Below are positions 1,906 through 4,277 of a DNA stretch of 4,277 nucleotides, piece by piece (the first letter of the stretch is position 1; every line of letters starts with the position of its first letter). Source of the DNA: a virus. Its lineage: Duplodnaviria; Heunggongvirae; Uroviricota; Caudoviricetes. The notes beneath the pieces are model-generated. The model ran no database searches. It saw only the letters and a list, made by a program, of their open reading frames with translations, and was not told where the DNA came from. The DNA lies in the IMG/VR virus record IMGVR_UViG_2734482566_000010; one strand, written 5' to 3'. Made by a program: the position numbers and the translations under genes.

Positions 1906-2025
1906 ATGACTGAAATCGCGTCAGTACAGTAAACGCGCTGGTGGCGGTGAATACCTGTCTTTCAGCTTGCTGGCTTTTTCGACAAGAGTTATTGGTGTGT
2001 CACGTTAACCGGAAAAGGAAAAGAC

Positions 2026-2223
2026 ATGCTAAAACAGCAGGATATGACAGAAACCGCCAGAGTGGTGTTTAATGAATTAAGCGTTACCGAACCGGCGACA
2101 GTCGGGGAGATAGCGCAGAATACTTACCTTTCACGCGAACGCTGCCAGTTAATACTGACCCAGCTGGTTATGGCGGGTCTGGCAGACTATCAGTTCGGTT
2201 GTTACAGACGCCTTCCGCAGTGA
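2026..2223 (+). CDS. small hypothetical protein (65 aa), putative helix-turn-helix DNA-binding protein
   Basis: ATG 2026 preceded by AAGGA at 2015-2019 (6-nt spacer). Segment ATVGEIAQNTYLSRERCQLILTQLVMAGL resembles an HTH/winged-helix recognition unit. Stop codon lies inside a terminator hairpin. Confidence 0.5.
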   Translation: MLKQQDMTETARVVFNELSVTEPATVGEIAQNTYLSRERCQLILTQLVMAGLADYQFGCYRRLPQ

Positions 2224-2233
2224 AGGCTTTTTT
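2210..2233 (+). terminator. Intrinsic terminator overlapping the stop codon of the 65-aa ORF
   Basis: Perfect 6-bp stem GCCTTC (2210-2215) / GAAGGC (2222-2227), loop CGCAGT, followed by TTTTTT at 2228-2233. Confidence 0.7.
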
Positions 2234-2250
2234 ATTTGTGGTAAATGGGC

Positions 2251-2281
2251 GGCTGGTGGGTGTTAGGGGCACCCACCAGCC
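2251..2281. repeat. 12-bp perfect inverted repeat (GGCTGGTGGGTG / CACCCACCAGCC) with 7-nt spacer
   Basis: Arms 2251-2262 and 2270-2281 are exact reverse complements. No U-tract follows on either strand, so it is not an intrinsic terminator. Confidence 0.6.
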
Positions 2282-2393
2282 ATCTGCTCATGCGTTGGGT
2301 TCACAAGCAAACCTCAGGCCCACTGCTTTGCGCAAAAGCAGAATGAGCCTATCAGAGACAGGCTTAATGATCCATGCTTAATACTGTAAAAAT

Positions 2394-2683
2394 NNNNNNN
2401 NNNNNNNNNNNNNNNNNNNNNNNNNNNNNNNNNNNNNNNNNNNNNNNNNNNNNNNNNNNNNNNNNNNNNNNNNNNNNNNNNNNNNNNNNNNNNNNNNNNN
2501 NNNNNNNNNNNNNNNNNNNNNNNNNNNNNNNNNNNNNNNNNNNNNNNNNNNNNNNNNNNNNNNNNNNNNNNNNNNNNNNNNNNNNNNNNNNNNNNNNNNN
2601 NNNNNNNNNNNNNNNNNNNNNNNNNNNNNNNNNNNNNNNNNNNNNNNNNNNNNNNNNNNNNNNNNNNNNNNNNNNNNNNNNNN
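2394..2683. other. Run of 290 N (assembly gap or masked sequence)
   Basis: Directly visible. Nothing inside can be annotated; ORF-track segments translated as X are artefacts. Confidence 1.
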
Positions 2684-3475
2684 GAAATCATGATGCGTGA
2701 ACGCTTCAGTGTGCTGAACCATATTATCTGGGCGAAGCCGTCCGGACGCTGGAACGGATGCAACAAGGAAAGCCTGCGGGCGTATTTCCCCGCCACAGAG
2801 CGCATTCTGTTCGCGGAACATTATCAGGGGCCGTATCGTCCGAAAGATGCCGGGTATGCGGCGAAGGGCAGTGCACTGAAACAGCATGTGATGGCCCCGC
2901 TGATTTCTTACTTTCGTGATGCGCGAGCTGCCCTGGGGATAACGGCAAAACAGATTGCAGATGCCACAGGAAAGAAAAACATGGTGTCGCACTGGTTCAG
3001 TGCCGGTCAGTGGCAGTTGCCGAATGAAAGCGATTATCTGAAATTACAGGCGCTGTTTGCCCGGGTGGCAGAAGAGAAGCATCGGCGTGGTGAACTGGAA
3101 AAGCTCCACCACCAGCTGGTGGATACGTATACCTCACTGAACCGGCAGTATGCGGAGCTGCTGAGTGAATATAAACATCTGCGGCGGTATTTTGGCGTGA
3201 CGGTGCAGGTGCCGTATACCGATGTGTGGACGCATAAACCGGTGCAGTTCTATCCCGGGAAACATCCGTGCGAAAAACCGGCAGAAATGCTGCAGCAGAT
3301 AATCAGCGCTAGCAGTCGTCCGGGTGACCTGATTGCAGATTTTTTCATGGGGTTGGGTTCGACAGTGAAAGCGGCACTGGCGCTCGGGCGTCGTGCAATT
3401 GGCGTTGAGCTGGAGACTGAACGTTTTGAGCAGACGGTTCGGGAAGTACAGGATTTAGTCAGCCAGAACGGATGA
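2684..3475 (+). CDS. DNA methyltransferase, beta-class N6-adenine/N4-cytosine type (N6_N4_Mtase-like), 5' end lost in the N-run
   Basis: C-terminal HPCEKPAEMLQQIISASSRPGDLIADFFMGLGSTVKAALALGRRAIGVELE matches the HP.xKP...GD.V.DPF.GSGTT...LGR..IG.E SAM-binding block (motif X + motif I) of beta-class MTases. N-terminal visible part has the IIWAKP motif. No DPPY-type catalytic motif in the visible 261 aa, so it must lie upstream in the gap. Frame is open from the first non-N base. Confidence 0.8.
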   Translation, partial: EIMMRERFSVLNHIIWAKPSGRWNGCNKESLRAYFPATERILFAEHYQGPYRPKDAGYAAKGSALKQHVMAPLISYFRDARAALGITAKQIADATGKKNMVSHWFSAGQWQLPNESDYLKLQALFARVAEEKHRRGELEKLHHQLVDTYTSLNRQYAELLSEYKHLRRYFGVTVQVPYTDVWTHKPVQFYPGKHPCEKPAEMLQQIISASSRPGDLIADFFMGLGSTVKAALALGRRAIGVELETERFEQTVREVQDLVSQNG

Positions 3476-3688: not shown

Positions 3689-3746
3689 GCGTTGTTAGCT
3701 CAGCCGGACAGAGCAATTGCCTTCTAAGCAATCGGTCACTGGTTCG
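3689..3746 (+). tRNA. tRNA-Arg (anticodon UCU, argU/argO-like), 3'-truncated after GGTTCG of the T-loop; probable pseudo-tRNA
   Basis: Acceptor 5' strand GCGTTGT, D-arm and anticodon arm ATTGC-CTTCTAA-GCAAT are intact (TCT at 3723-3725) and homologous to argU up to GGTTCG. No complementary T-stem 3' strand, no ACAACGC acceptor 3' strand and no CCA downstream. Confidence 0.6.
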
Positions 3747-3766
3747 CTTTTGCGGGCCTTTTTTTT
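3741..3766 (+). terminator. Intrinsic terminator built on the remnant T-arm of the truncated tRNA
   Basis: Stem GGTTCGC (3741-3747) / GCGGGCC (3752-3758), 7 bp with two G-U pairs, loop TTTT, then an 8-T run at 3759-3766. Confidence 0.6.
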
Positions 3767-3963
3767 AAATGTCTCACAATTCAGACGGTTGACAGTTGTC
3801 TGTTTTGCGGGGAGTTTGTTAAAAGAAACTGGCATGGTGAATCCCCCTGTGCGGAGGGGCAATCAGCGAGTAGGTATATGGGATAATCGCGGATTCAGGT
3901 GCTGGTACTGAATTCACCGGGAGGCACCCGGCATCATGCAATGGCACATAGCGCCACTCTCCA

Positions 3964-3986
3964 GCCCTCTCCGGAGGGGCTTTTCT
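3964..3986 (+). terminator. Putative intrinsic terminator ending a possible small RNA
   Basis: GC-rich palindrome CCCTCTCCGGAGGGG followed by CTTTTCTG. Confidence 0.45.
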
Positions 3987-4170
3987 GTGCCGGATACATC
4001 ACAGTTTCTGGAACCTTAGGTACTACAGTATCAGTCAGGGTGCTATATTTTCAGATGTGATGAAAGCCTGTCAGCAGGCAGGGCGTATCGGAAATGACCC
4101 AGTAGAGAAAACGTTGACTCAGATACCGGTGCTGAGTTACCGGGAAACCGGCATCACATGACCGCTATCC

Positions 4171-4277
4171 TGAGGTGTACTGGCAATAGCGGACACTACC
4201 ATTTGTTCTTTTTTTAAGCAGCCATCTGATGATATTTTTCCCTGAAGGCTGCCGGGGAGATATTCCCCAGACGAGAG
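4171..4277 (-). mobile_element. IS3-family insertion sequence, right end (IRR), continuing beyond the window
   Basis: Terminal sequence TGAGGTGTACTGGCAATAGCGGACAC has the TG...CA terminus and the GCAATAG.GGACAC core resembling IS3 inverted repeats. A transposase C-terminus is encoded just inside it on the minus strand. Confidence 0.7.
4214..4277 (-). CDS. IS3-family transposase (OrfB) C-terminal fragment, partial at window edge
   Basis: Minus-strand frame reads ...SRLGNISPAAFREKYHQMAA then stop (4214-4216). The LG..SP..F motif is typical of IS3-family DDE transposase C-termini. Stop lies 43 bp inside the IR terminus. Confidence 0.65.
   Translation of the reverse strand, partial: SRLGNISPAAFREKYHQMAA

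Follow-up and report, generated by a model that had tools for sequence, protein, structure and literature searches.

A structured leader RNA between a small winged-helix gene and an orphan DNA methyltransferase gene of lambdoid prophages is a candidate translational switch

The stretch of DNA analyzed here, 4,277 nt of the viral record IMGVR_UViG_2734482566_000010 (Caudoviricetes; the whole stretch is called the window below), is the late-regulatory region of a degraded lambdoid prophage. It carries a cassette that forms the first unit of the lambdoid late operon, with Q, pR', tR', a small winged-helix gene, a terminator hairpin, a structured leader, an orphan DNA methyltransferase (methylase) gene, tRNAs and late genes in this order. 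A perfect palindrome between the small gene and the methylase gene had been noticed in a sequence-only reading, in which it was likened to the operator of a controller (C) protein. Comparison of related sequences indicates that the palindrome is the stem-loop HP1 of a leader in the + strand mRNA and not a symmetric DNA operator. As the best explanation we propose that this leader is bistable and, together with the terminators, would gate translation of the methylase to the late phase. We give this reading a probability of roughly 0.55.

The two arms of the repeat, at 2251-2262 (GGCTGGTGGGTG) and 2270-2281 (CACCCACCAGCC), were found as the sequence-only reading had described them: each is 12 nt long, they are 100% complementary and a spacer of 7 nt separates them. 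Such a perfect repeat is expected by chance about 0.005 times per window (estimated from ~4277 positions x ~20 spacings x 4^-12). HP1 (2251-2281, + strand) has a folding energy of -33.3 kcal/mol (z-score -5.4) and extends outward by pairing of AUGGGC (2245-2250) with GCUCAU (2286-2291) across a 4-nt bulge (2282-2285), which results in a helix of about 19 bp. Only a minority variant, which is found in E. coli, has the perfect repeat; it makes up about 35 of the approximately 205 leaders that were scored. Among the commonest forms, the right arm reads CACCTGCCAGC, which places two G·U wobbles side by side on the + strand, or the stem has a one-base bulge, e.g., CACCCGGCCAGCC. Divergent loci keep HP1 with quite different stems (GACUGUAAAGGUG, GGCGGAGAGGGUG, GGCGAUCAGCGUG and GGCGAAUAGAGUG). 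Altogether 253 instances of the leader were collected, and 247 of these had a single hairpin of at least 9 bp at the HP1 position, with 21 distinct 5' arms.

In an alignment of 67 sequences, 98.3% of the HP1 cells were paired, and five of the nine pairs showed changes on both sides. When the partners were slid against each other as a control, pairing dropped to 24-43%. Among the cells without Watson-Crick pairs, G·U strongly outnumbered A·C, by 44 to 3 in HP1, 71 to 0 in helix 1:2 and 80 to 6 in helix 3:4 (for these helices see below). Such an excess would be expected of an RNA that is read from the + strand, but neither of a symmetric DNA site nor of a - strand transcript. Between loci whose methylases are 70-90% identical, the 5' arm of HP1 differed at about 0.2 of 12 nt when the small open reading frame (ORF) was present and at about 4 of 12 nt when it was not, as counted over pairs that are phylogenetically non-independent. 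The near-frozen 5' arm in the presence of the protein may be a hint of a link between the protein and HP1. As a general caution, a perfect palindrome in one sequence can be a local, symmetric-looking variant of an RNA hairpin.

HP1 belongs to a structured methyltransferase mRNA leader of about 130 nt (2245-2373, + strand), which has a minimum free energy (MFE) of -63.4 kcal/mol (z-score -5.5) and four covariation-supported helices. No other part of the cassette is conserved as well as the leader, which has a mean pairwise identity of 83.8%, compared to 70.3% for the ORF and 75.1% for the methylase. No + strand match was present in Rfam 15 for 2240-2380 at E-values up to 1, and a typical non-E. 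coli leader did not match any Rfam family at E-values up to 10. The folded leader is apparently undescribed and in no known RNA family. Four segments take part in its long-range pairing: segment 1 (2245-2250, AUGGGC), segment 2 (2285-2292), which lies just 3' of HP1, segment 3 (2299-2309), which reads GGUCACAAGCG in most relatives and is nearly invariant, and segment 4 (2361-2372), separated from the methylase AUG by 1 nt. A further hairpin, HP2 (2317-2349, + strand; -12.5 kcal/mol, z-score -3.1), consists of an outer stem (2317-2322/2344-2349) and an inner stem (2323-2329/2335-2341). The inner stem, with 7 bp and a loop of 5 nt, is the second, imperfect palindrome at 2323-2341 that the sequence-only reading had also listed. 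The outer stem covaries (CG 39 / UA 17 and AU 43 / GC 13), and the center of HP2 varies yet stays self-complementary (AGCGCT, AACGTT, TGCGCA, GTGCAC).

The MFE folds of most representatives paired segment 1 with segment 2, giving the HP1 of about 19 bp, and segment 3 with segment 4 around HP2. RNAalifold instead predicted a hairpin between segments 2 and 3. This alternative helix 2:3 (2285-2309, + strand) joins UGCU..UG (2285-2292) to CA..AGCA (2302-2309) and was 98.5% paired; its closing pair (alignment columns 122/158) was CG in 33, UA in 18, UG in 10 and AU in 4 sequences. The long-range helix 3:4 (2299-2372, + strand), which is formed by segments 3 and 4 and encloses HP2, was 92.5% paired in alignment A3. 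Its end pair (158/213) uses the same segment-3 base and was GC in 32, AU in 14 and GU in 6 sequences. The three columns in segments 2, 3 and 4 changed jointly, with C-G-C in 25 sequences and U-A-U in 14.

The broader alignment A4 added the Providencia-like and the ORF-less classes; alignments were made by MAFFT. In the Providencia-like class, AAG of segment 3 is replaced by GGA, and this change is matched in both segment 2 and segment 4. The segment 2 pair 55/76 is changed from UA to CG in 12 sequences, and the formerly unpaired positions 56/75 and 57/74 became CG/GC in 12, closing an internal loop. Double changes in helix 3:4 were present at three consecutive pairs in A4 (75/140, 76/139 and 77/138). 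In part of helix 3:4, the ORF-less class is shifted in A4 by one column, which reduces the percentage of pairing there. Slid-partner controls over the helices gave only 14-48% pairing. At the level of the aligned sequences, segment 3 was shown to covary with two mutually exclusive partners, segments 2 and 4.

The gene behind the leader (2374-3475, + strand) encodes an orphan beta-class N6A/N4C DNA methyltransferase (PF01555, E-value 1e-25; 349 aa in relatives). Its bases 2394-2683, the 5' third, are masked as N in the window, and the full gene was taken from the near-identical locus L001. A full-length relative matched MTase_II of PADLOC with an E-value of 1e-166, as a type II-like orphan. No endonuclease is annotated near the methylase; tRNA genes follow, and then stx or other late genes. 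The methylase AUG is not preceded by a Shine-Dalgarno sequence in most loci. According to prediction and covariation, helix 3:4 ends 1 nt before this AUG, covers the AUG itself in the ORF-less class and shows compensatory changes. Since one of the two pairings of segment 3 covers the Shine-Dalgarno-less start of the methylase, a translational switch is suggested, and the leader probably gates methylase translation. A leader peptide starting at the AUG/GUG of segment 1 (MGGWWVL...) was considered and rejected: the reading frame varies from 3 to 49 codons, lacks a Shine-Dalgarno sequence, and divergent loci keep the hairpin and not the peptide. The tandem Trp codons of this frame are due to the Chi sequence treated below.

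Small gene, leader and methylase are tightly linked. The leader was present in all 102 loci that were found by the protein and had downstream sequence, and all but three of them also had the methylase gene. Of 210 leaders first collected, 189 had the small ORF upstream and the methylase downstream, 8 had the methylase and no small ORF, and in 3 the ORF was followed by a truncated leader and the methylase was missing. When a divergent methylase served as the seed, a scan added 49 loci with the ORF and about 29 loci with leader and methylase but without ORF. The sequence-only reading had also considered a moron regulator, which is unlikely, as the gene was never seen away from the methylase leader (102 of 102 loci). 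In ORF-less loci the leader directly follows a terminator or an unrelated hairpin element of about 90 nt. This long-hairpin element (GCGAAGCCTCATCC ... GGATGGGGCTTCGC) replaces the small ORF in many of these loci (L189, L111, L160, L227 and relatives), at a distance of about 100 nt on the upstream side of the leader. Phages that have other Q genes match the window from 1882 on, the first base of tR', and in many E. coli genomes at 1806; position 1882 is a mosaic joint where phages with different Q genes begin to match. Judged by these common start points, the shared leader and the linkage, the cassette is a unit.

The small ORF (2026-2223, + strand) starts with ATG and encodes 65 aa. A Shine-Dalgarno-like AAGGAA (2015-2020, + strand) is read from the sequence 5-6 nt before this ATG, in agreement with the good ribosome binding site attributed to the ORF in the sequence-only reading. 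The ORF is a genuine conserved gene. The median ratio of non-synonymous to synonymous substitution rates (dN/dS) was 0.14 over 110 distinct ORF sequences. Variability at the three codon positions was 0.139, 0.124 and 0.322, so that the third position varied 2.5 times more than the first and second. The ORF is intact at 63-67 aa in nearly all of 24 loci, taken from one genome per species (Escherichia, Salmonella, Klebsiella, Citrobacter, Kluyvera, Buttiauxella, Mixta, Providencia and others), with identities as low as about 53%, and further phage contigs also keep it at this length. The protein has few homologs, with 334 clusters at an identity of 90% and 61 representatives at an identity of 50%, and all are from Enterobacterales and their phages. 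A later scan revealed a still more divergent branch (RCQLLLTQF...). The protein is a member of phrog_331 (PHROG 331; E-value 1.4e-37), for which PHROG lists the function as unknown. Its RefSeq name is 'TrmB family transcriptional regulator', and many homologs bear the same name in their source.

AlphaFold2 with an alignment of 22 rows predicted a winged helix of the topology a1-b1-a2-a3-b2-b3 with high confidence (predicted local distance difference test 93.2, predicted template modeling score 0.80), and at the level of modeling we regard the winged-helix fold as settled. The helix-turn-helix (HTH)-like segment of the sequence-only reading is thus part of a confidently predicted fold of DNA-binding type. 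The closest structures are those of MarR/ArsR/BlaI/IclR repressors. Pfam winged-helix families matched 25 of 32 members of the family, all below the gathering scores and with best E-values of 3e-4 to 6e-6; the small protein itself scored 18 bits for TrmB (cutoff 25.6) and 14.7 for MarR_2 (cutoff 27). While the winged helix is common to this protein and the MarR/TrmB/ArsR/BlaI regulators, the small protein differs in having only 65 residues, in its sub-threshold Pfam scores and in consisting of the winged helix alone, with no dimerization, ligand or effector domain. It forms a narrow family of its own, phrog_331. A sequence-profile search of the PDB with the protein family gave only spurious repeat matches, and a defense-system search with the small protein gave only a marginal match to SWIM_XIII (E-value 0.0035). 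In the literature on Shiga toxin (Stx) phages, only generic annotation was found for this cassette.

A candidate late promoter pR' (1807-1834, + strand) directly follows the stop codon of Q. It was read from the sequence as TTGATT, a 16-nt spacer and the extended -10 element TGgTAAATT; it scores below the threshold of the promoter scan, and its putative assignment follows the lambdoid Q-pR'-tR' layout. A 13-nt direct repeat occurs over the -10 region of this presumed promoter (ATCTGTGGTAAAT, 1821-1833) and again just before the leader (ATTTGTGGTAAAT, 2234-2246); it is specific to the E. coli version, and the copy at 2234-2246 lacks the final T of the -10 hexamer. Two intrinsic terminators were found. 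The first, presumably tR' (1882-1907, + strand), has a stem at 1882-1901 followed by TTTTTT (-11.2 kcal/mol, z-score -3.1), and the second, HP0 (2210-2233, + strand), lies over the stop codon of the small ORF, with a hairpin at 2210-2227 followed by TTTTTT (-8.9 kcal/mol, z-score -2.7). Both have a G+C-rich hairpin with a subsequent U run. The terminator scan listed 11 terminator-like sites in the window, compared to 4.3 +/- 2.1 in shuffled sequences. Relatives keep HP0 by means of differing stems (GCCTTC/GAAGGC, GCCTCC/GGGGGC, CTCCGC/GCGGAG, TGCCA/TGGCA). Its T run ranges from 7 of 8 down to about 3 of 8 and is weak (3-5 of 8) in many relatives, as judged from the alignment, since alternative extended pairings confounded automated counts of the U tail. 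A terminator-like hairpin is always located directly 5' of the leader, whether the small ORF is present or not. The terminators that bracket the small ORF in the sequence-only reading are therefore both there. The Q-dependent late expression deduced from them is the natural reading, because the ORF lies between two terminators downstream of Q, and this part would follow from placement.

Upstream of the small ORF, an alignment of 25 loci revealed a conserved non-coding block (1966-2003, + strand; CTTGCTG...AGAGTTATTGGTGTGTCAC). In most relatives it consists of CTTGCTG, a variable stretch of 10-13 nt and then CCAGAGTTATCTGTATGTCAC. The block is weakly promoter-like, with TTGCTG (1967-1972), a 17-nt spacer and TATTGG (1990-1995), in which the final T is missing. 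It was not called by the promoter scan, is not an inverted repeat and is absent from loci without the small ORF. The promoter scan also made no call between the small ORF and the methylase. A TGTG-A-run before segment 1, which has the look of an extended -10 element, was rejected as methylase promoter, as its spacing varies.

We propose the following sequence of events. Transcripts from pR' would stop at tR' in lysogens; for Stx phages, pR' is known to be constitutive, with a transcript that ends just downstream in lysogens (PMC7547250). Transcripts that leak through or arise downstream would meet the second terminator hairpin before they reach the leader. In the ground state helices 1:2 and 3:4 would form, and helix 3:4 would hide the Shine-Dalgarno-less start, so that the methylase would stay untranslated despite leakage. 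If HP1 and helix 1:2 were disturbed, segment 2 would capture segment 3, segment 4 would be freed and the methylase would be translated. Possible triggers are a bound protein, cleavage of the ~19-bp helix by RNase III or the order of co-transcriptional folding. Because helix 2:3 is weak alone, a factor or co-transcriptional folding would be needed for the switch. Together, tR', the terminator at the end of the ORF and the leader would confine a potentially harmful methylase to the Q-antiterminated late phase. The winged-helix protein is the obvious candidate for an effector, because it is strictly linked to the leader. In a more speculative part of the model it would act on HP1, by analogy to the action of the Com protein of phage Mu on mom. 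That the leader represents a new class of bistable mRNA switch, with the 65-aa protein as an effector that binds HP1 to unlock methylase translation and as an analog of Com on a different fold, is a tentative proposal, which we consider rather unlikely.

Several points speak against a leader that gates translation, or against a role of the protein in it. The folding energies of the two strands gave no distinction between them: the + strand was more stable in 31 of 65 leaders (p 0.33), and in the window the perfection of the repeat makes the two strands fold equally well. The covariation counts are numbers of sequences, which are related, and not of independent events, and the argument for alternative helices derives largely from two changes at the level of lineages. 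Taken alone, helix 2:3 has little thermodynamic stability in the window, and helix 1:2 is inseparable from an alternative long-range pairing of UGGGC with GCCCA. About 38 loci carry the leader without the winged-helix gene. Near-identical proteins stand beside different HP1 stems (L284 and L285, Providencia-like class), which weakens the idea that the protein reads HP1, and the nearest structural relatives of the protein are mostly DNA binders. Transcript ends, control of translation and protein binding are all inferred.

Part of the evidence may also be read in terms of DNA. As a controller-like regulator, the winged-helix protein would bind the palindromes as double-stranded DNA operators and time transcription of the methylase, or it would act as a roadblock or antiterminator. 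The fold of DNA-binding type with repressors as nearest structures, the strict linkage of protein and leader, the nearly invariant 5' arm of HP1 where the protein is present and the perfect symmetry of the repeat in the window are in favor of such a regulator. In most relatives, however, the arms are asymmetric as DNA, with tandem G·T positions or with one-sided extra bases that alter the spacing of the half-sites. The ratio of G·U to A·C (44 vs 3), the persistence of the hairpin with unrelated sequences and in the ~38 loci lacking the protein, and the empty promoter scan between ORF and methylase are further arguments against it. C proteins are likewise small HTH-type proteins next to a methyltransferase with inverted repeats nearby. 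They have an Xre-type (HTH_3-like) HTH, whereas this protein is a winged helix; C-boxes are symmetric operators upstream of the C gene, whereas the repeats here are downstream, asymmetric in relatives and show RNA-like covariation; and restriction-modification systems with a C protein have a linked endonuclease, whereas none is annotated here. Because of the different fold, the lack of an endonuclease and the position of the palindromes downstream of the small gene, the comparison with C proteins and C-boxes made in the sequence-only reading fails, and we consider a DNA regulator of this kind improbable. RNA processing or stability is a possible alternative, although we do not expect it to be the main function: the extended HP1 would be an RNase III site or a protective hairpin that splits two messages and sets their half-lives, and the other helices would be mere structure. 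This would agree with an irregular helix of ~19 bp with an asymmetric 4-nt bulge and -33.3 kcal/mol, with the position of HP1 between two cistrons of a long late transcript and with its conservation with and without the small ORF. It leaves unexplained that segment 3 covaries with two partners and that a long-range helix is conserved just before the methylase AUG. Processing at HP1 is compatible with the bistable leader, as the trigger of the switch.

The Chi octamer GCTGGTGG, which was missed in the sequence-only reading, is present in both arms of the palindrome, at 2252-2259 (+ strand) and 2273-2280 (- strand). The palindrome could present Chi both ways and protect or recombine phage DNA under RecBCD attack from either side. 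The window contains 6 Chi sites (534, 1937, 2252, 2273 (-), 3109 (-) and 3115) compared to 0.14 expected, and related prophage regions (L004-L026, L227-L306) have about 1 Chi per kb, 104 in late sense and 32 in antisense. Chi-rich lambdoid phages are documented (PMC12315714), and the Chi-bearing 5' arm is conserved in most loci of Enterobacteriaceae. On the other hand, the - strand Chi is present in only about 35 of the ~205 scored leaders, the hairpin persists without Chi in at least 17 stem variants, and conservation reaches well past the octamer and tracks base pairing. Chi is densest in the ORF-less class (1.26 per kb, 139 in sense and 7 in antisense), which yet has none in HP1; selection for Chi therefore fails to explain the frozen arm. 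The HP1 octamers would probably act as RecBCD signals in DNA, but they appear to be a secondary by-product of the Chi enrichment of these phages and not what maintains the hairpin; Chi as the reason for the palindrome is quite unlikely. Even less likely is a protein-independent RNA, either a metabolite riboswitch, e.g., for S-adenosylmethionine (SAM) or S-adenosylhomocysteine, or an antitermination RNA of the HK022 put type. The bistable architecture with conserved unpaired stretches, the position before a SAM-dependent enzyme and a leader that functions in loci without the winged-helix gene would fit. There was, however, no match to an Rfam family even at E-values up to 10, the leader stands after and not before the terminators that would need to be overridden, and Q already provides antitermination.

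Some further observations concern Chi. Only some of the relatives conserve the octamer GCTGGTGG at 1937-1944 (+ strand). Within the methylase coding sequence, positions 3109-3122 (codons HHQLVD) hold a further palindrome of two back-to-back Chi sites, CCACCAGCTGGTGG. Many genera have this pair at the same place, with the two sites about 1034 and 1040 nt beyond the start of the small ORF. Lambdoid phages that are rich in Chi and lack their own recombination module were described in 2025 by Zheng, Casjens, Davidson, Amundsen and Smith (PMC12315714). High Chi density and late-strand orientation are shared with the relatives of this cassette. That study concerns genome-wide Chi content and missing Rec modules and not HP1, whereas here Chi is part of a conserved RNA stem for which it is dispensable.

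The closest functional analogy is the com-mom system of Mu, in which the small Com protein binds to the mRNA of mom and turns on its translation, while an RNA stem-loop occludes the mom start (PMC6483171). In both systems a late gene for DNA modification is directly preceded by the gene of a small protein (here in 189 and 49 further loci), and both would follow the logic that a DNA-modifying enzyme is held off until late. Com is a zinc finger, whereas the protein studied here is a predicted winged helix without zinc-finger motif and unrelated in sequence and fold, for which RNA binding is only proposed. Mom is not a methyltransferase, unlike the downstream enzyme here. The leader is also far larger than that of mom, with four helices and two alternative pairings, and some leaders occur without the protein. 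With respect to lambdoid Q/pR'-tR' control (6S RNA of lambda, StxS in Stx phages), the cassette likewise starts after Q with a promoter-like site and a terminator; classical lambda does not have the second terminator and the folded leader between tR' and the first enzyme gene.

Leaders of the attenuator type (trp, erm and the RNase III-processed leader of lambda N) follow a 1:2 / 2:3 / 3:4 logic. They likewise have exclusive helices that share a central segment, one of them over a downstream initiation region. The present leader differs in that it has no conserved leader peptide, the frame in segment 1 varying between 3 and 49 codons. No terminator follows helix 3:4, and control would therefore be translational. 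The general principle, a bistable translational leader with com-mom-like logic, is familiar, while the fold of the protein is different and the RNA is larger.

The remaining part of the window agrees with a lambdoid late region. Positions 1-232 are the end of an insertion sequence; DNA annotated as transposase matches them in 4779 of the 5426 E. coli genomes, with several copies in each. Similarity to other prophages ends again near 4171 (right edge ~4172-4277). With the insertion-sequence end at the left and the stop of homology at the right, it seems that rearrangements delimit the prophage segment. A small ORF (352-609) and RusA (609-983) are followed by the Q antiterminator (980-1801, stop codon at 1801; PF03589, E-value 6e-55), which has a DnaJ-type CxxCxGxG zinc-finger repeat (PF00684, E-value 2e-6) besides the Antiterm domain. 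Two tRNAs, a truncated third one and an STnc100-family small RNA lie 3' of the methyltransferase. The truncated tRNA (3696-3761) is the third of the usual cluster of ileZ-argN-argO type; it reached 22.5 bits with the Rfam tRNA model (sub-threshold), was not called by ARAGORN and runs into a terminator-like hairpin (3741-3758). The match to the STnc100 family is strong at 3803-3992 (123.6 bits, E-value 8e-28), and a second, weak match (21.8 bits) is present at 4031-4219.

The best E. coli match is annotated in the order RusA, antitermination protein, hypothetical protein, DNA methyltransferase and tRNA-Ile/Arg/Arg. Phage phiP27 has the same cassette (L23, L24) between Q and stx2e, and in several Stx2 phages the cassette is likewise part of the late transcript, downstream of Q and ahead of the stx genes. 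Of 5426 complete E. coli genomes, 3136 had a match to a region of 614 nt, and in 1760 of them the match was nearly full-length; about one in three complete genomes of E. coli, at the least, carries the methylase cassette.

The leader is a concrete candidate for a new cis-regulatory RNA, and the model gives a first functional hypothesis for a widespread protein that is annotated only as 'hypothetical protein' or 'TrmB family'. The cassette would show how an orphan methylase able to alter host methylation stays silent until lytic growth. Extra terminators, processing sites or a switch between Q and stx would bear on the insulation of late transcription, and hence on toxin expression, in lysogens.

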